64,000 nt of DNA from Albugo candida (Eukaryota): positions 1 to 64,000 of the forward strand of contig JBDOQK010000039.1 in assembly GCA_040437565.1 (NCBI GenBank), written 5' to 3'. The notes under the pieces were generated by a model. The model was not told the origin of the DNA and searched no databases. It worked only from the letters and a program-made list of their open reading frames with translations. Positions 18,943 through 57,500 of this stretch are shown here, in pieces (positions within the stretch are counted from its first letter, which is position 1; the number at the start of each line of letters is the position of its first letter). Made by a program: the position numbers and the translations under genes.

Positions 18943-20263
18943 TTACGTGCGCAGAGTACATTTTGACTTCTGGCTTGCAGTCTCTTGCTGGTTTGTATTC
19001 TTTTCAGTGGAGTCACTACCTCCGGAGTTATCCGTGGTACTCTCCTCTTCATTCCCTTTGTCACCAGCTGGGTATACTTCTCCCGCACCTTTTGAAGTGG
19101 TTTCTTCTTCAAGTTTTGCGGCAGTATCAGGCTTTGTTGTAGTCTCAGGCTTTGTTGCAGTCTCAGGCTTTGTTGTAGTCTCAGGCGGTGGTGTGGTCTC
19201 AGGCGGCGATGTGGTCTCAGGCGCTGGTTTAGTCTCTGACGGTGGTGTGGTCTCAGGCGCTGGTTTAGTCTCTGACGGTGGTGTGGTCTCAGGCGCTGGT
19301 TTGGTATCAGGATTTGGTGTGGCGTCGTTTTTTGTGTCAAGCTGGGTTCCTTCATTAACGTTTGTTTTAGTTGGATCGGAATACTCATTACTTCCCTCAG
19401 TAGACTCCTTATTCCCTGACGAGCTTGACTTAACTGGAAATGCATTTGTGTACACTTGCCAGCCGGCACCGTGCATTGCCACCCAATAGAACCACACCTT
19501 TTTTGCTTTGCTGCATGTATCAAAATCGATCGGAATCACTGCAGGTTTACCGGTAAATTTGAAATGACAATTCAATTCATACACTACTTCTTTTTCGTCG
19601 CACATGACAGAGCATGGACCATGATGACCAAGATCATTTCCAAATATGAGAGTCTTGTTGATGACGACAGACGCCATTTGGTCTGGTAATGTGTATCCGT
19701 CTATAGGTGTTGCCCCCGGTTCTACCACTTGATTTTTGCGGATAAACTCTGCAAGCGTGGCATACTTGTATTTAGCCTTCATGCACTTGTCGTAATTTGC
19801 GACATTTGTTTCTGGTCCAGTCGACAGCTCGTATCCTGGGCACATACGGGTACCATTTACAATCGCGGAATATGCTGTTGTATCAACTCCTGCCTTAAAT
19901 ACACATAGTGGATCATATCCTTTTTCGGTCTTATACACTAAGTGTCCATGTCCATTGATTGTTGGAATTGCAGACCATAAAATAATACTTAATACGCGAT
20001 GAATCGACGCANNNNNNNNNNNNNNNNNNNNNNNNNNNNNNNNNNNNNNNNNNNNNNNNNNNNNNNNNNNNNNNNNNNNNNNNNNNNNNNNNNNNNNNNN
20101 NNNNNNNNNNNAGTGGATCATATCCTTTTTCGGTCTTATACACTAAGTGTCCATGTCCATTGATTGTTGGAATTGCAGACCATAAAATAATACTTAATAC
20201 GCGATGAATCGACGCAGATATGATTGGTTTTGATTGAATTGCAAACGCTTCTGAAGCAGACAT
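18943..20263 (-). CDS. Secreted AA17-like lytic polysaccharide monooxygenase, copy 1 (~371 aa after removing the gap duplication)
   Basis: Signal-like segment then ING|HGH (His1); GHHGPCSVMCD (second His); LNCHFKFTGKPAVIPID; FYWVAMHGAGWQVY; then a P/E/T-rich tail. 20112-20216 duplicates 19907-20011 across the gap. Confidence 0.85.
19117..19312 (-). repeat. Coding PETT / KPAPETTPPSET tandem repeats (18- and 36-bp units) in the AA17 copy 1 linker
   Basis: Repeated GTCTCAGGC units visible; translation TKPAPETTPPSETKPAPETTPPSETKPAPETTSPPETTPPPETTTKPETATKPETTTKP. Confidence 0.85.
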
Positions 20264-22565: not shown

Positions 22566-23618
22566 CTATTGGCGGAGCGTGCATCGACTAGCGGGCGGTG
22601 CAGGCGTATTACTTTCTTCGGTTTTATCATAATTGTCTCCGCTTTCAGGTTGCCCGCCTTGCTGAGTACCTTGGTGCTCAACACTTGGTCCGCCTGATTG
22701 TTGGCCACCTTGTTGAGGAGCTGGTTGTTTTTCTGCTTCTTGAGGTGGTGGTTGTTCTGCTTCTTTGGGCGGTGGTTGGTCAGTTTCCTTGGGAGTTGGT
22801 GCGTCTTTCGGTGGAGTACCTTTATCTTGGCCGTATTCTCCTCCTCCATTCTCACCGCCCTTTTTCTCACTTTCCCCCTTCTTATCATCCCCACTGCCAG
22901 AAGCTTCGCCTCCTTTCTCACCTTCACCTTTCTTATCATCCCCACCACCAGAAGCTTCGCCTCCTTTCTCACCTTCACCTTTCGTATCATCTCCACCGCC
23001 GGATGCTCCACCTCCTTCAACGCTTTTCACTTTGAATACGAAATTATAAACTTGAATTGCATCCGCTGAGTGCAATGCGACCCATAAGAACTGGCAAAGC
23101 GTGTCAATTATGACCTTTTCCAGATGTTTTAATGGAATGTGATCTCCTGGAGCGTCCTCAATACACTGCATCGAATCAAAAAGTACGACCGGTGCTTCAT
23201 CTGGTAAGCCACATGTAAAGCTGCAAGGTCCCACGTGAGTCTTGGATAATGGCGTAACGGGAAATTTCGCGGTCAACTCGTAACTCTCCACTGAGGAACA
23301 GCTTGCGGTTTCAAATGTTGTGCCCTTGTTCCAAGTGGTATACTTTTTGACAAACGCGGGAAGCTGGCTTGACTTGAAATCCGTTTTTTTCGCCCATGCT
23401 GAGAATGCATCCCATGCAATTTCAGGGCCATATTTGTACTGACCCGCAGGATCAAAATCTGCTCCCTGCATCTTACCATTATTTCCATACATGTCGTTAC
23501 CTTCGTTGTACACGCAAATTGACTTGCCACCTCCCGCAAGTCCAGGATGCGTATGGCCATGCACTGAAGTTTGTCGTAATAGAAATTGCAGAGCCGTAAA
23601 TCGGGCAATCAGGTTCAT
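22566..23618 (-). CDS. Secreted AA17-like LPMO, copy 2 (350 aa, divergent)
   Basis: MNLIARFTALQFLLRQTSVHG|HTH; KTHVGPCSFTC; QFLWVALHSADAIQVY; G/E/K- and P/Q-rich tail ending SRCTLRQ. The start at 23618 is supported by an upstream Inr+FPR motif. Confidence 0.8.
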   Translation of the reverse strand: MNLIARFTALQFLLRQTSVHGHTHPGLAGGGKSICVYNEGNDMYGNNGKMQGADFDPAGQYKYGPEIAWDAFSAWAKKTDFKSSQLPAFVKKYTTWNKGTTFETASCSSVESYELTAKFPVTPLSKTHVGPCSFTCGLPDEAPVVLFDSMQCIEDAPGDHIPLKHLEKVIIDTLCQFLWVALHSADAIQVYNFVFKVKSVEGGGASGGGDDTKGEGEKGGEASGGGDDKKGEGEKGGEASGSGDDKKGESEKKGGENGGGEYGQDKGTPPKDAPTPKETDQPPPKEAEQPPPQEAEKQPAPQQGGQQSGGPSVEHQGTQQGGQPESGDNYDKTEESNTPAPPASRCTLRQ

Positions 23619-23630
23619 CTTTGACGTTAC

Positions 23631-23646
23631 CAAATTGTGAATGAGA
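23631..23646 (-). promoter_or_regulatory. Oomycete Inr+FPR core promoter element upstream of AA17 copy 2
   Basis: Minus strand reads TCTCATTCACAATTTG 12 nt upstream of the ATG, close to the oomycete TCATTYYNCAWTTT consensus. Confidence 0.65.
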
Positions 23647-24541
23647 GATAAAAGCATTATTGTCAATCAACCGTTCCATGAAAACGTGTAGCAGTGACTC
23701 ATTGAATATGCAGAAAGTAGAGATTGCTGACGTTCCATTCACATGGAATAGCTGTTTGGTCACGCGTGATCGTGAACTACCTCCCTCAGATTAGTTGTTG
23801 AACATTTTATGACTCCGAACGTAGGAATCCGTGACGTGGTTTTGACACTATGACTGGATGCACATAACAACCCAGATTGGTCTAAGAGCATTCAATTATG
23901 TAATTAGCAGATTTACTGTCAATAAAATTCTGGTTGTTGAGCTGCGAGTTGTATCACCGCAATATTGCGCGGTCTGCGATGAAATCGTATCTCAACACAC
24001 TATACAAGTGCTCATGAAGACGTTTGGACGCTTGATCACGGATTAAAGGTCACATTCTTGTAGTCACAGCATCTCCCGCTCCAAAATACGAGTGCATCGA
24101 TATAAAAAAAAGACTGATGCCGGATGCAGTTCTCGTGTGCATTCACAGCGTTTGCATTTAACTACGAAGAAACACTACTTTCCAGCTTCATCCATTGATT
24201 GAATCGTGCAAAGGTGCGATGTGATATGTACTGGTCACAAAATTGCTTTCCAACGACGGTGTATAGCTATTGGAAGCGTATTGATCTAACTCTGGCTAGA
24301 TGTTTCAGTGAGCTCACGTCCAGAAGATAGCTATATATACATGTATGACGCAATAGAAACAATCTGTATATCAAACTTTTGATTGAGATTGCAATTTATT
24401 TATACTACTGCGTCGGCTTATCCGGTGTAAAATCAATCATTACTTGATCATAATTCACATAATATTACTCAGAGAATTGTGGGATAATTCGTCAGAAAAA
24501 TTGTATATTGAAAAGTCTAAATGTGCATGCAAAATAAACGA

Positions 24542-25141
24542 CTATTGGCGGAGCGTGCATCGACTAGCGGGCGGTGCAGGCGCATCACTCTCTTTGGTTT
24601 TATCATAATTGTCTCCGCTTTCAGGTTGTCCGCCTTGCTGAGTACCTTGGTGCTCAACACTTGGTCCACCTGATTGTTGGCCACCTTGTTGAGGAGCTAG
24701 TTGCTTTTCTGCTTCTTGAGGTGGTGGTTGTTCTGCTTCTTTGGGCGGTGGTTGGTCAGTTTCCTTGGGAGCTGGTGCGTCTTTCGGTGGAGTACCGTTA
24801 TCTTGGCCGTATTCTCCTCCTCCATCCTCACCGCCCTTTTTCTCACCTTCACCCTTCTTATCATCCCTGCCGCCGGATGCTTCGCCTCCTTTCCCACCCT
24901 CAACACTTTTCACTTCCCACACTTGGTTATATACTTGAATTCCTTCTGGCGAGTGCAATGCGAGCCATAAGAAGTGGCAAACCATGTTAGGTTTGAGTGC
25001 ATCCAAGCCTGTCAATGGAATCTCAGTTCCTGGAGCGGTCTTAATACACTGCTCCGATTCATAAAGTACAGCCGATTTATCATTTCCGAAGCATTCAACA
25101 CTGCAAGCTCCGTAGTGGGACTCCGATAATTTCGAAATAGG
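24542..25141 (-). CDS. Secreted AA17-like LPMO, copy 3 (5' end lost in the gap)
   Basis: Open frame from the gap edge: PISKLSESHYGACSVEC..EQCIKTAPG..CHFLWLALHSPEGIQVYNQV, then a tail nearly identical to copy 2, ending SRCTLRQ. Confidence 0.8.
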   Translation of the reverse strand, partial: PISKLSESHYGACSVECFGNDKSAVLYESEQCIKTAPGTEIPLTGLDALKPNMVCHFLWLALHSPEGIQVYNQVWEVKSVEGGKGGEASGGRDDKKGEGEKKGGEDGGGEYGQDNGTPPKDAPAPKETDQPPPKEAEQPPPQEAEKQLAPQQGGQQSGGPSVEHQGTQQGGQPESGDNYDKTKESDAPAPPASRCTLRQ

Positions 25142-25313
25142 NNNNNNNNNNNNNNNNNNNNNNNNNNNNNNNNNNNNNNNNNNNNNNNNNNNNNNNNNNN
25201 NNNNNNNNNNNNNNNNNNNNNNNNNNNNNNNNNNNNNNNNNCGTCAATCACACGGCTGGTGGAGAAACGTTCACCATCAAACCAACCATTTTCACTCTTA
25301 TAAACGAAAAAGA

Positions 25314-27677
25314 ATGGCTCCTACAAAACGCCGCAACCGTAAAACCACAAAGGATCCTTACTCTAGTGTGGACCAAGCCGAGCGTGTAAAACTTGGAGCC
25401 GAAGCGAAAGAACGAGGGAACACCGCATTCGCTGCTGGAGACCATGCAACTGCTATCAAAGAGTTCACGTCTGCGATCGCGTACGAGCCGGAGAATGTAA
25501 TCTACTACTCAAATCGCTCCGCTGCATATTTGAGTGCTGGACAAGCCACACAAGCGGTTCAGGATGCCAAAAAGTGTATCGATCTGGATCCAAAATTCTC
25601 CAAAGGATACGCTCGACTCGGTGCCACTCAGTTTTACATTAAGAATTACGGAAAAGCTGTGGCTGCGTACACGGAAGGTTTGACCATTGACAAAGGAAAC
25701 AAACAGCTGCAAGCTGGTCTTACACAAGCTCAGGCGGCACTACAAGTGCAAGAAGAAGAGATCAATGGAGTGGAAATGGATGAAGCGACACGGAAAATGA
25801 AACGCATGGAAATCGAAGAAACCATCAACAAGGCACGTAAAGAACGTGAACTACGTGCTGAACGTGCTGAACGAGGATTCAGTGAAGTTATTGGTATCGA
25901 TCTGGGAACCACATACTCCTGTGTAGGTGTATGGAAAGATGGCCAAGTAGAGATCATTGCTAATACTGAAGGAAACCGTACAACGCCTTCTTGGGTCGCA
26001 TTTACCGACAGCGAGCGATTGATTGGTGAGGCAGCCAAAATACAAGCGGCTTCCAACCCAACAAACACTGTTTTCGACGCGAAGCGTATTATTGGTAGAA
26101 GTTTTGCCGATGAAGCTGTGCAACGTGATGCTCAGCATTTCCCATTCAAAATCGTATCGGGTGATGGTGACAAACCACTTATTCAGGTGGAATTCAAAAA
26201 AGAGACAAAACAGTTCACACCTGAAGAAATCTCTGCTATGGTGCTCACGCGAATGAAAGAAACCGCTGAAGCATACCTCGGACAGCCCATCAAACAAGCG
26301 GTTGTGACCGTCCCTGCGTATTTCAATGACCACCAACGTCAATCGACCAAAGATGCCGGATCGATTGCTGGTTTAGACGTGAAGCGAATCATCAATGAGC
26401 CCACTGCAGCTGCCTTGGCGTACGGTCTTGACACCAACGCTGGATCTGATGGCAAAGCCTGTAATGTGCTCATCTTTGATCTCGGTGGTGGAACATTTGA
26501 TGTTTCAATTCTTCGTATTGAAAATGGTATTTTTGAAGTCAAAGCTACCGGTGGAGACACACATTTGGGTGGTGAAGATTTCGATAATAATATGGTCGAT
26601 TATATGATCCAAGAATTCAAACGCAAGAATCGTGGGTCTGATCCTTCAAGCAACCCTCGTTCCATGCGTCGGCTTCGAACTGCATGTGAGTCTGCAAAAC
26701 GTATGCTGTCGACCTCTACAACCGCTTCCATCGAAGTGGACTCTCTGTTTGAGGGTATTGATTTCAGCCTCACAGTCACCCGAGCCAAATTCGAATCGCT
26801 GAATGAAGAGCTGTTCAAACGATGCGAAGAAACTGTGCTCAAAGTTCTTGCGGATGCTGCAATGAAGCCTGATGAGATTTCCGAAATTGTGCTTGTGGGT
26901 GGATCCACTCGTATTCCTAAAGTTCAGAACCTCTTATCCGCTGTTTTTGGTGGCAAGGAATTGTCGAAATCGATCAATCCTGACGAAGCAGTTGCATACG
27001 GGGCAGCAGTCCAGGGAGCTATTCTCGATGGAATTCGCAATGATGCAACGAATTCTCTCTTGTTGGTCGATGTGACGCCCTTATCGCTGGGTATTGAAAC
27101 AGTTGGAAAAGTAATGTCAGTCTTGATCAAGCGTAACACTGCCATCCCAGTTCGTAAGACCCGCGTGTACACCACTGAAGAAGACTATCAAACGGCTGTG
27201 GACGTCTGCATCTATGAAGGTGAACGTGCTTGCGTGGATTCCAACAACAAATTAGGAGAATTCACAATTTCTGGCATTGAACGAGCGCGTCGAGGAGAGC
27301 CTCAAGTCAAAGTCACCTTTGAGATCGATGCGAACGGAATTCTCAATGTCTCTGCTACTGACAAGAAAACGGGAGCCAAAGCCGAGACCACCATTTCCAA
27401 CAATCGTGGGCGACTCAGTCAGGAAGACATTGATCGAATGGTATCGGATGCTGAGAAATTCAAAAAAGACGACGCAGAAATGCTTTCCCGAATTGAAGCA
27501 CGCAACGGCTTGGAGCAATTTATTTATCGAGCTATCAATATTGTCCAAGAAAAGGGCGATGCTGCAACAGGGAATGCGTTGCGAGATGCTCGTGAATGGC
27601 TCGACGACCACGAGGACGCGACGTTGCGTGAATTAGAAGAGAAGAAACGAATGTTGGAACGTATGGTGCGTCTATAG
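25314..27677 (+). CDS. Hsp70 with an N-terminal HOP/STI1-like TPR domain (787 aa)
   Basis: [28 protein letters not shown] (three TPRs), a charged linker, then [69 protein letters not shown]. Ends LERMVRL with no EEVD. Single uninterrupted ORF. Confidence 0.95.
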
Positions 27678-28494: not shown

Positions 28495-30237
28495 CTACAT
28501 CATTCCTCCCATACCTCCCATTCCGCCCATACCACCCATTCCTCCGCCCATCGGAGGTGCGTCACTGGCGTCTGATGGTAAGTCTGCAATCAAAGCTTCA
28601 GCGGTCATCATCAATGAGGCAACACTGGACGCATCCAAAAGACCTGTACGGATCACTTTCGTTGGGTCGATGATACCCGCTTGCACCATATCGACGTATT
28701 CTGAAGTTTGTGCGTTGAATCCGAACGATGCTTCTTTGCCTTCCAAAAGTTTGCCGACTACAACAGCTCCTTCTTCGCCAGCGTTTTTGGCGATCTGAGT
28801 GACTGGGGCGCGACAGGCACGCTCAATGATTTGCACACCGACTTTCTGGTCTAGGTTTTCACATTTGTCGTACAGACTTGGAAGACTTCTCGAGGACCAA
28901 AGAAGAGCAGATCCGCCACCAGGGACGATACCTTCTGCTACAGCCGCTCGAGTCGCATTAAGGGCGTCGACAACACGATCTTTCTTCTCGTTGACTTCCA
29001 CCTCACTAGCTCCACCAACTTTGATGACAGCAACTCCACCGCTTAATTTTGCTAATCTCTCTTGTAATTTTTCTTTTTCGTAGTCTGAAGTTGTCGAGTC
29101 AATCGAACCTCGCAGCAAATCACAACGTTCCTCAACCGATTCAGGTGTTCCTGCGCCGTCCAACATCAATGTGTCATCTTTGGTGATGGTTACTTTCTTT
29201 GCCGTTCCAAGCATGTCCACAGAGGTAGTTTCTAGGCGATGTCCAAGTTCTTCAGAGATCACAGTTGCGCCTGTCATCACTGCCATGTCCTGAAGTGAAG
29301 CCTTGCGGTTATCTCCAAAACCAGGAGCTTTGACGGCACATACTTTGACTCCTCCTCGAATTTTGTTGATAACCAAAGCCGCTAAGGCTTCACTTTCGAC
29401 ATCTTCCGCAATGATCAAAAGCGGACGCTGTTGCTTGACGACGGTCTCGAGTACCGGTAAAATACTTTGGAGAGTTGATACTTTCTTTTCGACCAATAGA
29501 ATGAACGGATTTTCCAACTCGCATGATTGATTCTTGTTATCAGTTACGAAATAAGGTGAGATGTAACCACGGTCAAACTTCATCCCTTCAACCACTTCAA
29601 GCTCGTTATATAACGTCTTCCCATCTTGAACTGTAATAACGCCTTCTTTTCCGACTCGTTCCATAGCTTCACTGATCAAATTTCCGACTTCCTTTTCGCT
29701 GTTGGCGGAGATGGTGGCCACTTGTGCTATTTTTTGTTTGTCAGCTACATCTTGAGATATTTTCTGTAGCTCTTCGACGACGTGGTCAACTGCCAATTTG
29801 ATACCGCGACGTAAATCGGTTGGGTTCATACCAGCCGCAACGGCTTTGCATCCTTCGCTGTAAATTGCACGAGTGAGCACGGTTGCAGAGGTTGTACCAT
29901 CCCCAGCAGCATCATTCGTGTTGTTTGCCACCTGACGCAAAAGTTGCGCACCCATGTTCTCAAACTTGTCTTTGAAGTCGATATTCTTTGCGACGGTGAC
30001 TCCATCTTTGGTGATTTTTGGAGCGCCATACGATTGATCGATTACGACATTACGTCCCTTGGGTCCCATTGTGACTTCAACAGCATTAGTCAGCTGATCG
30101 GCACCTTTAAGCATCAAAGCGCGCCCTTCAACCCCAAAGCGAATATCTTTTCCTGATGCAAACGATCGCCGAGCTACTGCTCGGGTCGCATGCTGCATCA
30201 AGCTTTTCTTAATCGCAATTGCTCGAGAGATGTTCAT
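28495..30237 (-). CDS. HSP60: Mitochondrial chaperonin 60
   Basis: Basic presequence, [53 protein letters not shown], and a GGM-repeat tail. Confidence 0.98.
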
Positions 30238-30374
30238 ATTTAAAATTGTATTCAGTAACTTGTCGAATTGGAAACTGTGAAAGAATGCTTGTCAAAATGC
30301 GTGGTTGATAGGAGTTCAATTGTAAATTACGAGCCGAACGTTATGATAAGTACGATATATGTGTAATCTGGTTG

Positions 30375-30384: not shown

Positions 30385-30561
30385 ATGTCTGATACAGTGT
30401 CATACAAACATACTTTTCGTATTTATGAGAGCTTATACTGTTCATAAGATCTGATTCTGAGTCTGAGCGTGTGACTTTTCATCCGTGCGCTCGAAAAGCT
30501 GACGAGGGTGCAGAAGTGCAAGATCTGAAGATCTAGTTCCCATCCTAAGGTCCCTAGACCA

Positions 30562-32526
30562 ATGGGAAATAAACGCAAGAAACTTGGTGTAGTGAGTGTT
30601 GCGCTCATAACGTACTTCAATGTGAGCGGCGGTCCTTGGGGATCCGAGCCAATTATCGCTGCATGTGGTCCCCTGATTGGGATTCTTGCGACACTTGTAT
30701 TTCCCTTTGTTTGGTGTTTACCACTGGCTTTGTCCTTTGCAGAGATGTTTTCAGCATTTCCCACTGATTCGAGTTTCTGTACGTGGGTTGGTAAAGCTTT
30801 TGGACGGCCGATGGGCTTCTACATCGGTTACTGGTCTTGGATTGGTGGCGTCATTGATAATGCGATCTATCCTTGCCTCATGGTGGATTCTATCCATGCT
30901 GTATTGGTTGGACCTGATGCAGTGGTCAAATCGTTTGTTATTCCTATGTGGATGTACGCGATACGATTGTTTGCTGCTACTGTCTTCATGCTGCCAACCA
31001 TTTACAGCATCGACGCTGTTGGTCGTTTTTTGTTGATACTCGGAATAGTTATGATTTTTCCGTTTATCGTGTTGGTTGTGACAAGTATTCCACAGATACT
31101 TCCGTCAAACTGGTTGCAAGTACGGTCAGAGCCGCAGTGGAGCCGGCTTTTGAGTGTTCTGTATTGGAGCTACAGTGGGTTTGATGCTGCCGGTGCGTAC
31201 GCAGGCGTGATCGATAATCCTCAGCGAACATATCCCCATGCGATGATAGCTACAGTCGTTCTGGTATNNNNNNNNNNNNNNNNNNNNNNNNNNNNNNNNN
31301 NNNNNNNNNNNNNNNNNNNNNNNNNNNNNNNNNNNNNNNNNNNNNNNNNNNNNNNNNNNNNNNNNNNATCCATGCTGTATTGGTTGGACCTGATGCAGTG
31401 GTCAAATCGTTTGTTATTCCTATGTGGATGTACGCGATACGATTGTTTGCTGCTACTGTCTTCATGCTGCCAACCATTTACAGCATCGACGCTGTTGGTC
31501 GTTTTTTGTTGATACTCGGAATAGTTATGATTTTTCCGTTTATCGTGTTGGTTGTGACAAGTATTCCACAGATACTTCCGTCAAACTGGTTGCAAGTACG
31601 GTCAGAGCCGCAGTGGAGCCGGCTTTTGAGTGTTCTGTATTGGAGCTACAGTGGGTTTGATGCTGCCGGTGCGTACACAGGCGTGATCGATAATCCTCAG
31701 CGAACATATCCCCATGCGATGATAGCTACAGTCGTTCTGGTATCGCTTACGTATTCGATTCCATTCTTGGCAGCTTCAGGGGTGAATAAACCGCCATATG
31801 AGCTATGGTCCGACGGCTTTTATCCTATCATTGCCGAGTACATCGCTGGCCCGGGTCTGCGTTCTTGGTTTCTCTTATGCGCAATTCTGGGCAATATGGG
31901 TGTGTATATTGCAAAAATGACCAAGAATGGATTCCAATTAGCCGGAATGGCGGATCTTGGGTTGGCGCCCACGTTTTTCATCGCGTACTACTCCCATTCT
32001 TTTTTTGAAGCGTTGATCTCTGTACTCATATGTATCTGATTGCCGATGTAGACGTTCGGCCGAAAATGGTGTTCCAGTTCGAGCGATTCTTACAGCATAT
32101 GGCATCATTTCCTTTATGGCTCTTTTTGACTTTAACGTGATACTGGGTGTGGATAACTTCTTGTCTGCACTTTCGTGTGTCACGGAAATGTGTGCAATCG
32201 TAGTGCTTCGATTCAAACACCCAGAGATTGAGCGACCGTACAAAGTGAATGTTTCCAGCATTTCGCTACTAGTAATCATGGTGATTCCATTCAGCATCGG
32301 CACATTCGTGCTACTGAATGAGTTGGTTAAATCCAGGCTCAGTCTGTTACTGAATATCGTCGCCATTCTTCTGGGGGTTGGCTATCACCAAATACTGCGT
32401 CGATCTGCTTCCTACGTGACATCGGAACAGGCGAATAAGCTCTTGCAGTATCAATTGGAAGGAATGGAGAGGACGAAAGCAAATGAGTGTGAATCAACTG
32501 TAGCGTCCATTCGACAAATAGAATAG
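30562..32526 (+). CDS. Amino acid-polyamine-organocation (APC) transporter, polyamine-uptake-like
   Basis: YFNVSGGPWGSE, AEMFSAFP, IDNAIYP, LYWSYSGFDAAG, NPQRTYP, LAGMADLGLAP, LRFKHPEIERPYKV; multiple TM helices; intron about 31985-32051. 31368-31743 duplicates 30892-31267 across the gap. Confidence 0.92.
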
Positions 32527-32613: not shown

Positions 32614-35600
32614 CTATAGACTTGCGCATTCCACGCTCAAGGAATTGGCGTCATCGACCTTATCTTGATGAGTTTCTGAGTCTGGTGGAGAGTCTTCCGT
32701 TCGCATTTTTGTTTGTTCAGAAATGGATGTAAGCTGTGAGAGTTTGTTTGTTACAAATGAAAGACCATCAAACAGACTTGTTTTTGTGGCTTCGTATTGA
32801 GATTTTTGAAGTAATGGTTCATCAGTTTCTGTAGTTACGCAAGTGTTCTCTTCGTCAATGGTCTCCGTATCATTTTCGTCCGTCACTTTTTCGTCTTTTT
32901 CTCTCGCTTTTTCATTATCTTGTCTCACTTCCCCATTTTCTACTCTCACTTCTTCATCTTCTTCTCCCACTACCGCATCTTCCTCTTTCGCATTTTCACC
33001 TTCGCTCACTGCTGCATCTTCTTTTTCCACTTCTTCATCTTGTCCTCTTCCCTCGTCATCTTCTACTCCCATTTCTTCATCTACCACTCTTCCTTCGCCC
33101 TCTTCTACTTCCACTTCTTCATCTTGTCCTCTTCCCTCGTCATCTTCTACTCCCATTTCTTCATCTACCACTCTTCCTTCGCCCTCTTCTACTTCCACTT
33201 CTTCATCTTGTCCTCTTCCCTCGTCATCTTCTACTCCCATTTCTTCATCTACCACTCTTCCTTCGCCCTCTTCTACTTCCACTTCTTCATCTTGTCCTCT
33301 TCCCTCGTCATCTTCTACTCCCATTTCTTCATCTACCACTCTTCCTTCGCCCTCTTCTACTTCCACTTCTTCATCTTGTCCTCTTCCCTCGTCATCTTCT
33401 ACTCCCATTTCTTCATCTACCACTCTTCCTTCGCCCTCTTCTACTTCCACTTCTTCATCTTGTCCTCTTCCCTCGTCATCTTCTACTCCCATTTCTTCAT
33501 CTACCACTCTTCCTTCGCCCTCTTCTACTTCCACTTCTTCATCTTGTCCTCTTCCCTCGTCATCTTCTACTCCCATTTCTTCATCTACCACTCTTCCTTC
33601 GCCCTCTTCTACTTCCACTTCTTCATCTTGTCCTCTTCCCTCGTCATCTTCTACTCCCATTTCTTCATCTACCACTCTTCCTTCGCCCTCTTCTACTTCC
33701 ACTTCTTCATCTTGTCCTCTTCCCTCGTCATCTTCTACTCCCATTTCTTCATCTACCACTCTNNNNNNNNNNNNNNNNNNNNNNNNNNNNNNNNNNNNNN
33801 NNNNNNNNNNNNNNNNNNNNNNNNNNNNNNNNNNNNNNNNNNNNNNNNNNNNNNNNNNNNNNCTTCTACTCCCATTTCTTCATCTACCACTCTTCCTTCG
33901 CCCTCTTCTACTTCCACTTCTTCATCTTGTCCTCTTCCCTCGTCATCTTCTACTCCCATTTCTTCATCTACCACTCTTCCTTCGCCCTCTTCTACTTCCA
34001 CTTCTTCATCTTGTCCTCTTCCCTCGTCATCTTCTACTCCCATTTCTTCATCTACCACTCTTCCTTCGCCCTCTTCTACTTCCACTTCTTCATCTTGTCC
34101 TCTTCCCTCGTCATCTTCTACTCCCATTTCTTCATCTACCACTCTTCCTTCGCCCTCTTCTACTTCCACTTCTTCATCTTGTCCTCTTCCCTCGTCATCT
34201 TCTACTCCCATTTCTTCATCTACCACTCTTCCTTCGCCCTCTTCTACTTCCACTTCTTCATCTTGTCCTCTTCCCTCGTCATCTTCTACTCCCATTTCTT
34301 CATCTACCACTCTTCCTTCGCCCTCTTCTACTTCCACTTCTTCATCTTGTCCTCTTCCCTCGTCATCTTCTACTCCCATTTCTTCATCTACCACTCTTCC
34401 TTCGCCCTCTTCTACTTCCACTTCTTCATCTTGTCCTCTTCCCTCGTCATCTTCTACTCCCATTTCTTCATCTACCACTCTTCCTTCGCCCTCTTCTACT
34501 TCCACTTCTTCATCTTGTCCTCTTCCCTCGTCATCTTCTACTCCCATTTCTTCATCTACCACTCTTCCTTCGCCCTCTTCTACTTCCACTTCTTCATCTT
34601 CTCTCGCTTCTTCATCTTCTCTCACTACTCCCTCTTCTGCTCTCACTTGTTTGGCGTCTTGTGTTTCTATATCATTTTCCTCTTCGCATTCCTTCTCATA
34701 AGAAGCAACATCGTCATCCGCAATACAAGGGTTTTCTACAGCGGTTGGAGGCTTTGGCATTTCGGAATGCTTTTCGGGGCTGTGAGATACTTGGGAGATT
34801 TGAGACATTAACTCCGACTCAGAATCTAGGACGACCTCATCTTGGCTCTCCTCGCACTCTTGCCCAAGATCCTGAGCATTATTATTATCATCAGTTTCCG
34901 AGCCCTTTTGCTCTAAGCTTGGTGCGATGATATCCAACTTCTCCCCACCTGTATCTCCGTCTTCAACTTCATGAGAAAGCATTTGTGTGGTATCAGAATG
35001 TTCTTTGAAGTCTTCAGAATCAGGAAGCGATTCCTTGCGTTCTTCCTCGTTTAAAACGCTTTCAGTAGTAAACTCGACATGGGAACTATTGTCTTGATCA
35101 TTCGCAATCTTGACCCCAAGACCGGCAAAGAGATTGTTCACATTATTGCCCACCACACATTGCTGTGTTTCAGCGACTCCTTTCATATCGGATACATTTT
35201 GCCTAAGGGTATCCAGTCTCTCTTTCGCTGCCTCGATCTCAGCACAAACGATGTTCAGCTCTTCGTCGTACTCTGCCGCTGCATCAAAATTGTCCTCGTC
35301 CGAAGCTCGTGCAATAGCGCTTTCTAGCGCTTCTTCTTGGCCGTACAAATGTTTTAACGACACCTCCAACTCATTAATCGAGTTCTCCAATGCCTCGACG
35401 GTTAGTTGATCGGGCTCATCAGTACCAGCTTCCTCTTCTTCCTCGTCAGTTGTAATGACTTGCTGCTTCTCATGTAGAAAGTTTTGATCCCTATCTGACC
35501 TTGCACTACCTTCTTCACTTTGTATTTCGCATGCGCCCTCGATCATTGTCACATTTTCCTGTTGCAAATCTAGAATCTTTTGCTTTTGGTGACTCAAAAT

Positions 35601-38600
35601 ATCAAATTGTTCATCTAACTGAGCTGCAACTTCGTAATCTTCACTCTCCGTAGCCTTTTCAATCTCCAATTCCAATGCTGCTAATCGTGCATCAATACCT
35701 TCAAGTGTGGTCTCAGAATCGTTTGCAAGCGCTGCGTCTCCATTGAATGTCCGCTCTAGTTTTTCACTTTGCGAGAGAGAAGAGATTTTCTCTTTTAGAA
35801 ATTTCAATTGTGATGCAAAGTCTTGTTTCTCTTCATCGCTCGACTTATAGCCACTTGATTCATCATCATCAGAGATTTCCTCATCCTCGTCGTCGAATGA
35901 TTGATGAATGTCGTGCTTTTTCTCAAGGTTTTGTATCTGTATCACGCAAGCATCAAGTTCCGACTTGATCAAAACCAACGCAGCATTTAGGAACGATGCA
36001 CTTTGGCTCGATTGGTCTTTAGCCAAATTTCCTTCAACAAATCTCTTCTTATCGTTCGCAACGGATTGAGGTATTCCACGTTCCCTGCAGCATCTCTCCA
36101 TTTTTCGTACAGCTTTGCCGAGATCCTTGTACTCTTGGCTTAATTCCTCGAGTGTTTCGAGATCCATTGCTTTCTCCACATTTATCAATTCCTTTTTGTG
36201 TTCCTTGTACCTTTCCTCAGAACTTTTGATTTGGTCTAGTAGATCTAGCAACTCCATCTCGACAACTTCACTCATCTCTTCGGCATTGTTTCGGTCTTTT
36301 TCTAAAGCTTTGATATCCTTCGAAATTCTAGCAGCTTCCTTGAAGTTTCGTTGAGTTGCAGCAGCTTTTTTCTCTGATTCAAGTCTTGGAATCATAGAAT
36401 CTGCTGAAGCTTTGGCGTTCGCGTGCATGGCAAGAGACTTTTCGAGTCCTTCCTGTTGCTTACGAAGCATCGCTACACTCTGCTCCGCAATCGCAGCTTT
36501 ATCTGAGAGAGAGTTCAAATCATTGCTGCGTTCTTTTTTTCGTACGAGCGAATCCTCTCGCCTAGCTTCCTGCATCTCCAGCACATCTGTTAGCAAAGTT
36601 GCTACCATAATGGCTTTTCTCAGTGATTTGATTTGCGTAGAGCTGTCCATGATTTTCTCTTGATATTCACGAACTTTCTGTATAAATTGTTCTTTCTGTT
36701 CCTTCAGATGCTCAACGTCGGCTTCAACCTCGGACTTTGTACGCAGGATCCCTTCTTCTCGATCTGAAATCCGCTTTACTTGTCTTGAAAAACGGTTTCG
36801 AACCACATCGATCTCTTTTTCTGCTTTATCAATGGCCATTTGTATCTCTGTTACTCGGGCTTTCTTTATTGATAGCTGCCGTTCCAATTCTCGAACTTCT
36901 TCTTCGACCACTTGCTTTTCTTCTTCCAAAGATTTTTGCACCTCAATCTCACTTTTGCACTGTTCCGTTATCCTTGCTTCAATCTCGTCTCTCTCACTGG
37001 TGACATGCTTTAAAGTCACACTAACATGATGCAGCTCTGTTTGGATTCTCTCATTCTCAAACTGTAATTGTTGCAATTGATTCGTTTGATACGTCTCGTA
37101 GTTTTTCTTCAAGTCTGCTCGTATCTGCTCTTGGTCTTGGCAGAAGGTATTGAGTTCTTTAAATGTTCCACGTGTTGTTCTCAGTTGAGTGACAAAAGTT
37201 CGCTCTTTTCCTTTCAGAAAAGCGGTAAATTCCGAGTCAACTTTTCTCAAGTCGCTTTCTGTCAGTGTGATGCAGTGCCGAACGCTATTGATGCTTGTAT
37301 TCAGTGCATCAGCTTTCTCAAAATCTTCTTCTTCGCATGCGCGTTGTTGATTGGCTTCAACTTGACGCAAATCAATCTCATATTGCGTCAATTGCGATTT
37401 CAACTGCATCTTACGTTCTAGCAAACACGATTCTTCTTCACTCTGCTTTGAGACCGTCTCGTGGAACGCAAATGCGCTCTCACTAAAATCCCTCAGCGTC
37501 GCCGTAAATCGCTCTTCCAACGACTGCGGGACGATCGGCGAGAGTGATGGTTGAAGTGGACTTTTGGTCAAACTTTCAGATTGCGTATAGCTCAACTTCA
37601 ACTTTACATCAGGAGGGATGATTTCCTTGCTTTCGGTGACTTTAGGCATACCCTGAGCGTATAGTATACTTGAAGTGCTATGTATACTTGATGTTGGTGA
37701 TGGTTCATTCCCGACAGAAAATGATGCGGGTGATTTATTCGTATGAACTGTTAATCCAGCTAGTATTGATGTGGAAGATTCTTTTCGTAAAATTGGGTTG
37801 TGGACCGTAAGGCCTGCAAGAACGGATGAGATTTCACCAGAATTTGTAAGTTTTCCCGGCAAAGGTGGCAACAAAGATGTAAGATCTTCCGAAAAATCGC
37901 GAATCGGATTGGTCACGGCTGTATTTGTCGTGGTGGTATTCGCTTTAACGATTTCTTCATCCTGAATATCTCCGCGTTGTAATGCCGCAACTGCATCTTC
38001 CGATAATTGCCGTCCGAAGCCAGGTCGAAACGTTTTCTTCTTCTTTTTTACTTTGAGTGCACGTGCTACAGCAGAGTTACTAGAACTAAGTGGAGTATTT
38101 GTATTTGAGGTTGCGTTGATCTCTTTCGACTGAACAGTATCCAGATAGTTGAATGTGGTCGGACGAGACTTCGCAGTACTCCGTCGACGTTGTGGCGTTT
38201 CATTTAATACAGCCGGAGTGTTGGTAGTATTCAAATGAAGTGGTTTGCTGGAAACGACGTCAAGTCCATTAAAGAGACTATTGGATTCACTCGATGGCGC
38301 AATAACTGGCTTCTCCTCAGTGTATAGTGTTGACGTGCTCGTAGGCTGCTTCACCGACATGCCACCAAACATATCTACAGCGGTGGTAGTATGGTCAGAA
38401 AGAGTCGAGGAAGCAGGTGATGAATGCATTCCATGGTTGCTACTGGTTGTATTGTGGGAAGTCAGCATTTGCTTGTTGGAATTCGCGGATGGTGGAAGAT
38501 TAAAGAATCCTCCTCCATCGCGCTCCGCACCCGTACTGGCATCAGCTTGAGTGCTTCCAATACCAGCTCCCGTGGAGGTAGCATTCACATTATACGAATT

Positions 38601-38669
38601 ACGAAATGCGGGTGGACCTGCTGGTTGTTTATTTGCGCCCTCTTCCTTTTTAAAGAAACGATTAAACAT
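32614..38669 (-). CDS. Large acidic coiled-coil protein with UvrB/UvrC-like (UVR) motifs, repeated LFxGL motifs and a 28-aa tandem repeat
   Basis: ORFs 33753-38669 and 32614-33759 join through the same repeat across the gap. UVR-like segments: ACEEEDFEKADAL, AATQRNFKEAARISKDIKAL, ATESEDYEVAAQL, ASDEDNFDAAAEY; long heptad region. Confidence 0.85.
33025..34600 (-). repeat. Perfect 84-bp coding minisatellite (VEEGEGRVVDEEMGVEDDEGRGQDEEVE)n
   Basis: About 8.8 identical units on each side of the gap (33025-33762 and 33863-34600). True copy number is unresolved. Confidence 0.95.
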
Positions 38670-39460: not shown

Positions 39461-42400
39461 TTACCTCGATTGCATGAATTCACTCAGAAACTCATAGAAA
39501 GCAAATTCGCGAGCATGCAGACCGACCGAATACACGAATCGGGATGCTATCTGTGAGGCAAACAGTGCGCGGGTGTACTTTTCCGGTAAACGCGCCACAA
39601 AGTTCCCAAACCCAATTTTCTCATGCAATAAAGCTGGAATCCCCTGACGGAGTACCAATTCACGAAGCTGTACATTATCCCAAAGAATCGAGTCCTGAAT
39701 CTCCACGCTCAGCTTCGTAATCCGTTCGCTCAAGTGATTGCTCAATACTGAGAATGGGATTTTTGTTCGCTCGTGCTCCCGCCACAAACACTCGAATTCC
39801 TGGGACGCATTTCGTGCGATTCGAAGTTGTACTTCCTTCACGTATTCCTCATAAAAAGCGGGTTTTTTGCCGGTCATAGCGTCCACCTGCATATTTTCTT
39901 CAAACTCTTGATCGCTCATGCACAGCGCAGCCAAGACTTCCAGAGAGGAAGACGTGACACCGCCTTTATTAGCAGAAGCGTCTTTGAACAGAATAACGCC
40001 AGCTTGTTCCAACCGCAAACGGGCATCTTGCGTGAAGAACAAATTCGCACCTTCGACAATGTATCGAAAACGCAATGATTTTCCATCCGATTGATACAAA
40101 AACTCTTCGACATTATTTAAATTGACTGCTGAAGGTCGTCCGCCACACGGAACGAAGAAATCAGCCGATAAAGAGGGTCGTAAATGGTATAAATTCCGGA
40201 ATTCCACTCCATTTTCAATGATTTCGCCATTGGCCAAACGAACATCATTCTGAGTCACGAGCACTTGATACCCGTTGGGCGTCAGTTTATGAGAATCAAA
40301 CGACGATATCGGCTCGCGTTTCTCTGCAAGCGCTTGTAATTCCGATCGATCCAATCCTTCTGGGTCGTACAAGACCCCAGATCCGTCCACGATCGCAATA
40401 GTGCATTCATCTCCACTCATTTTGATCTCATTTGATCCCAAGTCGCCATCAGGACCGCCTGTTTGTACTTTGGTGATCCGTTTGGCTCCCTTCTGATCGA
40501 GATTCAATTTACGTTGAATGCCTTTGATGTATTGACGCACACTATGTGTAGTCATCCCGTAGACGTCATGAGGAATGCCGCCATGCGTTGCCGACTTCCC
40601 GGTTGTGATGGCTTTCCAGTACGAGTACCCACGCTTCTTAGCGTATAAACTAGCCCAATCCATCATATGAGCTGTTCCTTCATCGGGTCCCAAAAACAAA
40701 AGCTCTTCCTCGCCATTGATTTTTTGCAACATGATGCTCAGTAAAGCATCAATGTACTTTTGGAAGGCGATATCCGCTTTGTCTTGATGTGCTTGATTGA
40801 GTAAGATCACTCCTTTGGACCCTCCCTCCGGTATGTCTTTGTTCTTTCGCTGCTGTGTGGATGCCAAGCTGTAGCATTCATCAAACAAAGATGACACATT
40901 GTTCAAGTACACTTGAGCATGGGAAGATCGGATCATTCGGATACCTCCACGGGCAATGTCGGAAAAGCGAACGTGAAATCCACGGAATTCCGATCCGATT
41001 ACGTAGATAATGGCAAAAGGTTTTTCCGAATATTCGGTCTCTGAGAGGAATTCTCCATCCAAACGAAACGATAGCGCCGATTTGTCTTTTAAGAAAAAAT
41101 TGGTTTTTGTGGTGTTTTTGTTGAATGTGTGAAACAACGAAAAGATCAGAAGCGCTTGTTCCGAATTGGTCGATTTACGTAAAGCCGAAAGCGTGGAAGC
41201 GGTTGATGGGGGATTGTTGCCTGTTTGAGGCGCATGGAGACTCTCGAACTCATTGTACAAAAGCTTCACAATGGAAGAAGATTGTAAAATGTGCTCGAGG
41301 ATTTGCGATTCAGTGTACGTATTCACTTTCATAGTCGTTCGAAGTTGTTCGAGACGCGCCATTGCCGATGAATCATGACCTCGTAAGGATGTGGCGACCA
41401 CAGTATACGCATCCGGAAGTCGATGCATGAAATGAAAGACGAATTTCCATGCAGCGTACGCATATGCAATCGGCTTTGGTGCCAATAAACCGTTCCGTAG
41501 CATCGGCGTGAGGGAAGTGCGTGGCAGTACGAAATGTAAGGAAGCGTCAGCCACGAGCATTTCGATTTGTTTTGCGAGCGAGATATCACACTTTTGGGAG
41601 TTTTGTAATTGTTGGAGATAGAAAGCGTAGATAACGTATCCGTTGGAGAAAAATTCGACATACTTTCGAGTGGAAAAAAGACCCAATTGACGATACAAAT
41701 CGGCAATACTTGAAAAATATCCGTGAGTCGATCCGCTCTTGTACGCGATTGTGACACGAGCCATTTCTACTTGGTCCTTTTCCTTCCAGATCTCCGTGTG
41801 GAAGACCGGGGTCATTTGTTCGACGGCTTGAGTGAGGCATTCTTGATAAACACGTTTCAGATTATCGCCAGCGCGACTGAGGAACGTCTTATCGGCTAGC
41901 TTTTGGATGCTTGTCTCACTGGTAGATGGATTTGGGTCTACAAAGTCTGGTTTCTGCAAGAAATACATTCGGACATGATACGGGACAATTGTTGGATCCA
42001 ATACGCCACTGAGTCATTTTCATGAAACAAGGCCTTTAGGATATGATATATTGCGAGATATGATATGATGGGTACGTACACGGAACGATAACATTGTAAT
42101 CGATAATGTGATTTTTGAGTTTTGACCGCTTCATTTGGCTCTAAGAACTGATATCCTGATCGGACTCCGTCCCCTATCCATTCTTGGGCACTACCGCTTA
42201 AGTACTGTTTTTCGATCTGAAGTTCAAGTTGTTCCACTTCTGTCGGACAATTTTCTGAACATTGTCGTGTGGTGGATTCTCCTTGAACGTTACTTCGTGC
42301 TGCGAAAAACGCCTCATTCTCTGAATGTTGCTCCAATTTTATATCCATTGGGCGTCCTGACGCTTTCGACACTAATTTGGCTGCTATTATACTACGAACC

Positions 42401-43192
42401 GATGCGTTAGGATGACGAACATAGGTCAATACAAAGTACCTTTGTATATGCTTTGCGATGTTTTCTGGGGATTGTCCGATGAAATAAAAATCATGCAGAC
42501 CCAGCGGACCATAAAACCACTCAACCTCACGTTCGATGCTTTCTTGAGTGAATAAACCATCCAGTTGGATATGCTCCCTCACTTTGTTTTTCTTTACTGA
42601 AANNNNNNNNNNNNNNNNNNNNNNNNNNNNNNNNNNNNNNNNNNNNNNNNNNNNNNNNNNNNNNNNNNNNNNNNNNNNNNNNNNNNNNNNNNNNNNNNNN
42701 NNCTTTGTATATGCTTTGCGATGTTTTCTGGGGATTGTCCGATGAAATAAAAATCATGCAGACCCAGCGGACCATAAAACCACTCAACCTCACGTTCGAT
42801 GCTTTCTTGAGTGAATAAACCATCCAGTTGGATATGCTCCCTCACTTTGTTTTTCTTTACTGAAACGTTAGTATCACTTCCGCACTAGGGAGTTCTCACC
42901 TGAGTGAGCGCTGCCATTTGCTGTGTCATTTTCTATTTCAATTGTGACCTTTTGCCTCAATATAAGTTTTGTAACAGCTGGTTGAGGTTGGGAGCCGATC
43001 AAACAGGAGGATAATGGCGAACTTGAACTTGAAAATACTAAATTAATAAAGTAACTTGATATTTTCAGTAATTTACATTACGCTAAGTTGCAATGGCGGA
43101 TCCTAAACGTTGCTAAAGGTATCGTCGTCTTCGAAATGACTCAGAACTTACTAACTAATATTGTGTCCATCCACACATCCCTCCTGACTCAT
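39461..43192 (-). CDS. GDH2: NAD-specific glutamate dehydrogenase, large (GDH2) type; 5' exons uncertain
   Basis: EVEWFYGPLGL, FRGFHVRFSDIARGGIR, KNKDIPEGGSKG, LGPDEGTA, TGGPDGDLGSNE, VPCGGRP, VEGANLF, KDASANKGGVTSSSLEVL. Several introns and two gap duplications lie at the 5' end; the start at 43192 is tentative. Confidence 0.92.
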
Positions 43193-54522: not shown

Positions 54523-57500
54523 ATGCATGATTCTCTCAACACCAACATGGAAGCAAATCCATCTCCAATTCCATCCCATCCTCCTCAATCACCGTCTCAA
54601 ATGCTTTACTCGCTCCTCGATCGGCTTCTTGTTTTAGCATACGAACAGTGCACGGATCCACCTCTATCTCATCATATNNNNNNNNNNNNNNNNNNNNNNN
54701 NNNNNNNNNNNNNNNNNNNNNNNNNNNNNNNNNNNNNNNNNNNNNNNNNNNNNNNNNNNNNNNNNNNNNNNNNNNNNCACCAAGTTGCCAAAGAATCGAT
54801 CTCATGCACCAATCCCGCGCCTTTATGGCCTCATATCTCTATCAATCCGCCGCGGAATTTCTTTCGCTTTGCACCAAACAGTAGCATCACGTTCCCCTCT
54901 ATCGATTGGTCTTCATTTCGCTCTTATTCCATTGCAATTTGGCTCTATATCGACATTTCATGGACATCGACCTCGACAAAAGGCCCCAAGCTCTCCTCTT
55001 TCACAGTCTTTCACGTCTCCAACCGCAGCAATTCATTGGGTATGGAAACCCAATTGTATTGGGACACCAACGACACAAAGCAACGAGTCTTTGTATCCAT
55101 CCAAAGTCGTGCAAATGCGTCATTTTCGACTGAAAGTCACAAACAAAAGCAAAAGCCCGAGGCCCAATTTTCCAAAATGGACGAAAATCAGCCGAAATCG
55201 GCTCTTTTGAACGGATGGGAAGCCGTCGATCGATGCATTGGCATACGAAATAAGCGGTGGCATCTCTTAGTGATCTCTCATTCCTCCCATTATCTCAAAA
55301 AGAGCTCTATTACGTGTGTTTTGGACGGAGAAATGCAATTTCAAGCTGTACGAAAGTCTCTCTCTTCCAATTCCGTCTCATTGAGTCTCATTGTGCTGTT
55401 TTATAGGATTTATCGTATCCTTCCGCGCTGATACACGCCTCCAATTGCTACTGTGGAGCCGGTCCGAATTCTCGATTGCGTGTGTCGGGAATCACAATGT
55501 ACCCGGAAGAGCTTCAGATGAACCAAATCGCTATGGTGTACCGCCAAGGACCCAATCGCCCACTGATCAGAACTGCACGCGGTAGATATCGAGATATTGG
55601 ACGAGATTTCGTCTCCGAGTTTCAGGAAGAGATCCCGAAATCATGTGAACTGAGTATGCTATCGCCTCAGGATCGAAACACACTCGCAGAGCTCGCCAAT
55701 CGACGTGTTCTTTTTAGTGCTGCGGCTATGGATCCGTGTGAAAACAATCGTAGCGTCGAGTGTATCCGTGAAGGCCACGTGACCGATTCGCAGTCGAAAT
55801 GGATCACGATGGAGAATGTGGGGCCTGCGAGCACGTCGACGTCCTCCGAGGTGCAATATCGCCATTTTCAATGTCACAGAGACGTCAGTAACGTGCGTGT
55901 CAGCGATATGTACGCTGCTTGGCATCATGTACTCGGTATTGAGGCGATTCCGGTTCTTTTCCATTACATTCTGATCGGGTACGAACGTACTGTGAATGCT
56001 GAAGGATTGGATAAATGCATGGAGAGTATTTTCATCAATCTGCTTTGGATTTTAGCGGCATTATTGTCCGATACCATCGAGAATCAGGAGGGGTTCTTGC
56101 AGACGTTTGGATGTCACATGCTTTATCATACATTTCTCCAACATAAAGCGAGCGTTCGTCGTGTATGGATGACGGAAGGCTGCCTATCGTCCATGTTTGA
56201 ATTCGTGCAAGGACTGAAAAGGCTTTCGTTTGTGGACAAAATCTCATCGCAAAAGAGTATATGGAACACGAATCCTCTCTTTGGCACAGCACTACGGGTT
56301 TTCTTCCTGGACAATGAGATTTGGAAAGAATCGGTGGGGCTCAAGACACAAGCGTATTTCTACCATCATCTCTTGGCCGTCATCACGCAATCGCCTGGCA
56401 TCATCAACGAGCTGGGAGGTGTTTCGCGGCTTCTTGAGACGTTAGAGCGCGTGTCCGAGCGTGATGAAGCAGAAGTGAAGGAATGCGTCCAAGCGATCAC
56501 TCAGATGATGGAGACTTGTCTTGTGGCACAGACATACGTGATGGATCCTGCAGAGAAGGAAGAGCTCGCTTTCATTCCCATAAGCGTTCCCGAAGAAAAG
56601 GTTGAGATCTCACCGACTGCTTCCAATTTGTTTGCAAGCACTTTGTCGGGTCGAAAGAATCGATTTCTGCATCTTCAGTTGGAAGGGATCGAATGGAGCG
56701 ATCAGAACGATACGCATGGCCAAAAGTCAGAGACGTCTATAGACTCGTCAGCTGTAAGCTCTATTTTGCTTCGAACAAGTCTTTTGCGTGATATTCGGCT
56801 CATTCTCGCATTTCTGCTTTTTTGTGAGAGCTCTGGCGTCGTGCTTTCGCTCGTACGAATGCTTCAGCGTCTATCGGATGCTCACATTGACGTCCGTGTG
56901 GCTCTATTGGGCTCCAATTTAATCGATTCCATGCTCATCATTCTGCGTCGAATTGACAAAAAAGCTGCCAATTCGACGGAAATCGACACAACAATTCAAT
57001 TAGCAGCACTTCGATTGACGATATCCTTCCTTTCTTGGCTCGAGTGTGTTCAAGGCCGCACGGTTTGGTGTGCGTTGGAAGAGCGTCTACAGACTCTGAC
57101 AACTCGCCAATCGGTACATCACCCGGCTTTCAATGTGATGCAGCGTATGCAGGCGCATTGGCGTCAAATGTACTCGGATTCCGACGGCTTTGGTGTGAAG
57201 AAGAGTGTGCTTTTCAACGAATTTCGGAAGCAAATTCGAACGTCAATGCTGTTTCCCGTTCATTCCCTTGGAAGACCGTATCCGTCTCTCCAGGAAGATG
57301 CTCCAAAACACAATCCTTCTCACCGGAATCGCGTTGTGCTTACGTGGGATCAGCGATTGGCATTAGGCTTTTTCGGCGCGTATCAGCTCCTCCGCCAACA
57401 GAGTTTCCAACAAGAGATGAAGACGGAGATGTTGGCTTCCGACGTGGCTGACGCGTTGGATGAGCTTCCATTACCAAGCATCTTGCCGTATCTTCCGTTC

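Follow-up and report, generated by a model that had tools for sequence, protein, structure and literature searches.

Does the long coiled-coil protein encoded in the middle of this Albugo candida sequence belong to the AP-4 trafficking pathway, and what family does it come from? The window analysed here comprises 64,000 nucleotides (contig JBDOQK010000039.1 of assembly GCA_040437565.1, positions 1 to 64,000 of the forward strand). Translation of the window reads the gene from an ATG at 38669 to a stop codon at 32614 on the minus strand, and the gene is single copy in the A. candida genome. A first-pass annotation, made from the letters of the window, had noticed repeated motifs resembling those through which tepsin binds the AP-4 ears and had proposed an undescribed, multivalent AP-4 accessory or tether protein. 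These motifs are real and are confirmed by relatives of the protein. The gene itself is very probably an oomycete member of the DISC1 family. This family is already described; the present analysis adds to it an oomycete member and the motif arrays.

32614..38669, minus strand: whole gene of the probable DISC1-family UVR coiled-coil protein (no intron seen; frame broken only at a 100-N gap)

Motifs of the beta4-ear type were scanned with the strict pattern [GS]LFxG[ML]x[LV] and the looser LFxG[ML]x[LV]. For the epsilon ear the pattern was S[AV]F[SA]FLN, the consensus given in the first-pass annotation. Translation and pattern scans recovered all seven annotated motifs at their positions on the minus strand; they are listed below with two further conserved segments of the N-terminal arm.

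38490..38513, minus strand: GGFFNLPP near the N-terminus (columns 53-60 invariant or nearly so in 39 oomycete proteins; fits neither tepsin motif)
38352..38375, minus strand: beta4-type motif 1, DMFGGMSV (residues 99-106; F101, G103 and M104 invariant in 39/39 aligned oomycete proteins)
38256..38279, minus strand: beta4-type motif 2, SLFNGLDV (residues 131-138; L132, F133, G135 and L136 invariant in 39/39)
38139..38159, minus strand: epsilon-type motif, TTFNYLD (residues 171-177; where oomycetes retain the motif, most read GSFNYLD)
38010..38048, minus strand: basic motif KKKKKTFRPGFGR (residues 208-220; family-wide [KR]n-x-G[FY][GA]R)
37803..37826, minus strand: Phe-less variant SVLAGLTV (residues 282-289; S282, L284 and L287 invariant)
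37746..37769, minus strand: Phe-less variant SILAGLTV (residues 301-308)
35112..35135, minus strand: beta4-type motif NLFAGLGV (residues 1179-1186; first in the C-terminal arm)
32755..32778, minus strand: C-terminal beta4-type motif SLFDGLSF (identical in A. laibachii P0004)

The flanks of the two invariant beta4-type cores are variable in the same alignment. Shuffled versions of P0001 (n=50) gave a mean of 0.0 beta4-type and 0.06 epsilon-type matches. Scanning of the open reading frames of at least 250 residues in the window (14,073 residues including this gene) found no beta4-type and a single epsilon-type match outside the gene.

Motif conservation in orthologues, a check set beforehand, was found throughout: all 55 oomycete orthologues carry loose beta4-type copies, from 3 to 14 per protein and 547 in total, and distant relatives hold near-exact copies of both kinds. 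Those relatives were collected with a motif-free query (window 35160-37640) searched against 1.84 billion representatives, which returned 253 matches at E<=0.001; the distant set consists of 129 proteins with ~21-31% identity, taken from the best 150 of these 253. One of the 129, P0093, failed the family profile; it was kept as motif-less in the enrichment totals and excluded from the N-terminal arm and exact-copy counts. Within this set 54 beta4-type matches were observed versus 0.48 expected from shuffles, and 192 epsilon-type matches versus 1.94 expected. The beta4 type is carried by 44 proteins, the epsilon type by 59 and both by 37. Many of these matches are N-terminal fragments; among those with an N-terminal arm longer than 250 residues, 55 of 61 have at least one motif type.

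Strict [GS]-led beta4 copies number 119 in 59 oomycete proteins and 110 in 118 land-plant proteins (P0280-P0397). The beta4 type is present in 113 of the latter, mostly as SLFEGMVL, and most of the land-plant homologues also display a second variant, NLFSDLTL (LFSD[L]). Exact S[AV]F[SA]FLN occurs in 6 copies, some of them SAFSFLN, among 123 proteins that are neither from oomycetes nor from land plants. The basic-motif pattern is found in 50/55 oomycete and 112/118 land-plant proteins, the plant form being RKKKRAGLRIGYGR. Most of the 30 distant matches looked up for names are nameless; among the named motif carriers are Vitrella, Pelomyxa, Mataza, Spumella, several diatoms, fern(s), lycophyte(s) and angiosperms, and they fall in groups reported to keep AP-4.

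AP-4 is encoded in the same genome, where the search covered beta4, epsilon and tepsin and found all three. The Albugo beta subunit has a platform-only ear whose sole match in the PDB is the human beta4 ear (E 0.021), and the epsilon subunit is encoded with an ear platform. A tepsin-like ENTH protein is specified by a separate gene (L008:2372-3166, G000:C31). Its tail is itself multivalent, with SLFSGLQT and NMFGGLAI of the beta4 type and SSFGFIK and DSFNFVK of the epsilon type. The looser copies of the protein studied here are more credible because the Albugo tepsin uses the same relaxed dialect (MFGGL, FNF). Complex prediction with the Albugo beta4 ear and residues 120-152 scored 0.00 in both runs, made without an alignment or folded controls, and is evidence neither way. 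Among metagenome contigs, 81 pattern matches to beta4-ear relatives yielded none that was confirmed. The term 'uvr' was absent from the 11 files searched, out of 15, of the Toxoplasma tepsin/AP-4 supplements, an uninformative outcome. Of the preprints on the Arabidopsis adaptor-protein interactome and on clathrin-coated vesicles, neither main text contains 'neurofilament', and '25070' does not occur in that of the vesicle preprint.

The assignment to the DISC1 family concerns mainly the central part of the protein and its UVR hairpins.

36030..37532, minus strand: helical core homologous to DISC1 (probable; residues 380-880)
~37302-37334, minus strand: UVR hairpin 1
36297-36398, minus strand: UVR hairpin 2 (Pfam residues 758-791)
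35268..35648, minus strand: two further UVR-like hairpins, by sequence pattern (around residues 1008-1018 and 1124-1134)

Profile searches were run against 177,635 PDB sequences. Using a broader family profile (A2), mouse DISC1 (9RUX) ranks first (E 1.9e-6). A profile picked outside the oomycete and diatom clades (A4) ranks it first again, at E 1.4e-9, the next match being at 4.8e-5. The profile-to-9RUX alignment consists of three collinear stretches that cover both UVR hairpins, and the oomycete profile matches the A4 profile with probability 100 and E 2.7e-63. The aromatic residue and Ala of each hairpin loop (F450/A453 and F776/A779) do not vary among 39 oomycete proteins and align to the UVR loops of DISC1. 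The Pfam UVR match is below threshold (19.9 versus a cut-off of 21.5 bits); over 30 family members UVR alone recurs (10/30), and no DISC1 model was returned by the Pfam copy used. Weak UvrB matches of the oomycete profile fall on the extra hairpins (E 0.01 and 0.12). UVR proteins of plants and fungi were suggested by ESM features, with DISC1 at lead level 0.84. The AlphaFold2 model of the core is an all-helical monomer with long helices (mean predicted local distance difference test score 87.7) that break at both UVR loops. Used as a query, this model gave no Foldseek match at E up to 0.001 and only generic helical hairpins with VIA-align (best Z 11.6), DISC1 being listed by neither; an ESM Atlas search with Pelomyxa P0186 gave no usable match.

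The protein had been called uncharacterised by the first-pass annotation, a description that does not hold for its family, given that 9RUX leads the A2 and A4 searches of the PDB and that the family is already in print (PMC13273187). DISC1 homologues are named there from Arabidopsis, rice, Dictyostelium, Monosiga and T. brucei. In the same paper the core of mouse DISC1 forms a tetramer via head-to-head UVR hairpins, and the plant, amoebal and trypanosome homologues are predicted as dimers (PMC13273187). Protist S[AG]F[SG]F[LM] repeats fit the human DISC1 peptide SSFSFIR, of which Albugo has the variant TTFNYLD only, and the basic motif is a candidate counterpart of the DISC1 arginine-rich motif. 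One plant match is annotated 'like AT5G25070', a locus that is presumably the Q8L4Q6 of PMC13273187.

Taken with these results, the protein probably acts as a DISC1-family oligomer whose disordered arms form a multivalent docking array cross-linking AP-4 ears, with a binding that is predicted from its sequence. Tepsin binds the beta4 and epsilon appendages through two short motifs (PMC13335578, PMC6627992), and DISC1 tetramerises and binds the motor adaptors NDE1 and TRAK1 (PMC13273187 among the sources). The Albugo core would oligomerise through its UVRs as mouse DISC1 does. Because of this presumed assembly, the flexible arms of one particle would present some 24 beta4-type motifs, and in other oomycetes as many as about 50. 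The beta4-type motifs would bind beta4 ears, and the FNYL motif may be a weaker or decaying epsilon contact. By avidity the oligomer would then gather at AP-4 patches of the trans-Golgi and could act there as a scaffold that clusters adaptors, or link the vesicle with a motor or target. The name 'tether' covers one among several possible roles.

Several observations weigh against this docking-array proposal or against the DISC1 assignment on which it builds. The motif patterns were loosened after sequences had been seen. Agreement with the tepsin consensus given in the first-pass annotation holds for part of the set: SLFNGLDV is the only one of the six Albugo beta4-type copies that meets the strict form, and NLFAGLGV joins it under LFxG[ML]x[LV] (2/6); the other copies, two of them Phe-less, do not comply, and TTFNYLD falls outside S[AV]F[SA]FLN as a loose epsilon match. 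No exact S[AV]F[SA]FLN was found in 59 oomycete proteins, Albugo included, and the epsilon type is absent from all 118 land-plant proteins. FNYL itself is present in 31/55 oomycete proteins and absent or altered in 24/55. The motif counts do not represent independent events because the proteins are related and many come from diatoms. The first, diatom-rich mixed profile placed DISC1 only sixth in the PDB (E 0.001), and the oomycete-only profile did not reach it at E up to 1. DISC1 was found in none of the 7 + 2 supplementary files searched, one of them truncated, from two human AP-4/tepsin proteomics papers; this absence is weak evidence because DISC1 is in no table there and may be unexpressed in those lines. 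One ESM cluster is commonest in Mucoromycota, which would count against co-loss with AP-4 if its members come from AP-4-less Mucoromycotina and not from glomeromycetes. Among the fungi sampled, the glomeromycete Rhizophagus alone keeps full AP-4 (PMC4022609), and the complex was lost in yeast, Drosophila, Leishmania and red algae (PMC4022609 among the sources).

Another class of short motif has to be weighed on the same letters. FxGL, FNYL and the plant NLFSDLTL all fit [WFY]xx[LIV], the LC3-interacting motif, a fit that belongs with the unfavourable points just given. LC3 is bound by human DISC1 at 210-FSFI-213 (PMC6351828), and an LC3B site overlaps the tepsin beta4 motif (PMC13335578). The protein would then be a multivalent autophagy receptor or scaffold with ATG8/LC3-interacting motifs, its AP-4 binding being absent or secondary. 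This is the main rival, though we consider it unlikely: in the family, F is preceded by a hydrophobic residue and followed by Gly at +2 and another hydrophobic residue at +5, none of which an LC3-interacting motif needs, nor does such a motif call for a second, separate SxFxF[LM] type. The flanks of LC3-interacting motifs are described as acidic (PMC6351828), whereas Ser and Gly are the commonest ones here. AP-4 and LC3 roles can coexist, as in tepsin. That the motifs bind the appendage of another coat (AP-1 gamma ear, beta1/2 ear, TSET, clathrin), or nuclear transport receptors in the manner of FG repeats, is quite improbable. FG-x-hydrophobic gamma-ear ligands and SLFG nucleoporin repeats resemble FGG[LM], the commonest oomycete form (319 copies), and the A. 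candida genome also encodes a beta1/2 ear. The letter counts go the other way: Gly at +2 is kept with a non-Gly residue after F in 127 oomycete and 114 plant copies, and, across three protein groups, FG[PDE]-hydrophobic occurs 2, 4 and 8 times, [GS]LFG with a residue other than Gly after it 2, 7 and 0 times, and FxFG 0 times. The FG-nucleoporin and gamma-ear ligand readings were rejected for this poor fit.

It is also conceivable that the protein, though an AP-4 binder in protists and plants, is no orthologue of DISC1, the likeness being that of a generic coiled coil with UVR hairpins. Coiled-coil decoys lie within 25-fold of the DISC1 score in the A2 search, and the failure of the oomycete-only profile noted above is on the same side. 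In the A4 search, however, DISC1 is ahead by more than 4 orders of magnitude; the three collinear stretches match the P, L, K, F and A that hardly vary in UVR2 of the family, and UVR proteins from plants, amoebae and trypanosomes have already been given as DISC1 homologues (PMC13273187). A generic resemblance of this kind is in our view highly improbable. The probability that the motifs arose by chance within low-complexity sequence, or are the product of a faulty assembly, is negligible. The gene does span an assembly gap and an inflated repeat. This explanation is nevertheless refuted: relatives collected with the motif-free query exceed their shuffles ~100-fold in motif number, the motif columns are invariant in 39 oomycete proteins, and no motif lies inside the repeat.

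In a bolder reading, DISC1 may be an ancient AP-4 accessory scaffold with both motifs pre-dating the major eukaryote split, human SSFSFIR being a surviving epsilon-ear motif and DISC1 still acting on neuronal AP-4 vesicles. We put this forward tentatively, as a possibility with the balance somewhat against it. A 2011 study reportedly found no DISC1 in yeasts, flies or nematodes, all of them lineages without AP-4. The human peptide containing SSFSFIR is now read as an LC3 site (PMC6351828), and the Ser/Phe-rich region of human DISC1 has been called conserved (PMC6046077). The literature covered, with few subscription papers, contained no report linking DISC1 to AP-4; DISC1 appeared in one AP-4 paper as a reference title only. 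The family is known, its predicted AP-4-type function being apparently unreported. Such a role would matter on both sides: for DISC1 many partners are reported but its ancestral function is not agreed on, and few accessory proteins of AP-4 are known. The scaffold of the AP-4 coat in animals was stated as unknown in 2014 (PMC4022609); Toxoplasma AP-4 uses clathrin. If the ancient-scaffold idea is true, the DISC1 family would supply the multivalent lattice that AP-4 coats were thought to lack, and a psychiatric-risk gene would be tied to AP-4 deficiency syndrome and to ATG9A transport; should the link hold in people, two neurodevelopmental disease fields would join. Such motif arrays, seen most clearly in the oomycete proteins and their up to 14 copies, make the DISC1/AP-4 link precisely and cheaply testable.

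The C-terminal part of the gene is affected by its assembly.

33017..34600, minus strand: 84-bp tandem repeat (28 residues, acidic; 8.9 + 8.8 copies, 99-100%, flanking the gap 33763-33862)

An A. candida database protein (P0003, 1526 aa) is 100% identical to core residues 380-880 and has a single unit of the 28-residue acidic repeat, the same chain continuing to SLFDGLSF. This motif can be counted as part of the protein, though it lies past the 100-N gap, because P0003 holds it in one chain. The copy number of the repeat is unreliable because P0003 has one unit and the gap sits inside the repeat, and a biological role for the repeat was rejected for the single unit in P0003. The repeat at 33017-34600 contains 0 tepsin-type motifs. 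The window has 15 gaps of exactly 100 N (307-54777), several with duplicated flanks, for example in the permease at 30529-32039 around the gap 31268-31367; for this reason repeats adjoining gaps are suspect in this assembly.

The window begins at a chromosome end, given the telomere-type repeat at positions 1-77 (unit ACCCTAA, 10.7 copies). An amino-acid permease (30529-32526, plus strand) is placed tail-to-tail with the DISC1-family gene. In Lagenidium (P0026) and Nothophytophthora (P0051), gene models fuse the UVR protein to permease Pfams, which suggests a neighbourhood conserved across oomycetes. Nearby are also Hsp60 (28495-30291) and an NAD-glutamate dehydrogenase (39461-42753). Three related secreted-looking proteins are encoded on the minus strand (18943-20142, 22566-23666, 24542-25243). 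They have His-Gly after a signal-like stretch, WxAxH...QVY, a low-complexity linker and a C-terminal S[KR]CTLR[TQ], and are reminiscent of oomycete AA17 lytic polysaccharide monooxygenases. Reading by eye identified a TPR domain in-frame with the N-terminus of Hsp70 (25116-27677, plus strand) and a PH-BEACH-WD40 protein in a 2195-residue frame (55407-61994, plus strand).

Among known systems, UvrB, UvrC and ClpC share with the Albugo protein the UVR helical-hairpin dimerisation motif, which in the latter is sub-threshold in Pfam. Unlike them it has no nuclease, helicase or ATPase domain, and a DNA-repair role suggested by the UVR name was rejected. Tepsin, whose beta4 motif is LFxG[M/L]x[L/V] (PMC13335578), and the plant MTV1 resemble the DISC1-family proteins studied here in having two kinds of short motif, beta4 and epsilon, in disordered sequence. 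The Albugo protein differs from tepsin, to which it is not homologous, by many more motif copies and a coiled-coil core that probably oligomerises; a tepsin paralogue was rejected, as Pfam finds UVR only and no ENTH/VHS-like domain, and the tepsin of the genome is another gene. With DISC1 it shares a disordered Ser-rich head followed by a helical core with two UVR hairpins. Like the protist members, vertebrate DISC1 has Ser/Phe motifs in its head, together with the Arg-rich motif to which the basic motif of the family is a candidate counterpart. The order is different: the Arg-rich motif of human DISC1 (around R37) comes ahead of its Ser/Phe motif (200-219), whereas the basic motif of protist proteins follows their Ser/Phe motifs. 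Relative to DISC1, the UVRs are spaced farther apart, and the protein adds two UVR-like hairpins, a C-terminal arm that is long and acidic, and 6-14 beta4-type motifs.

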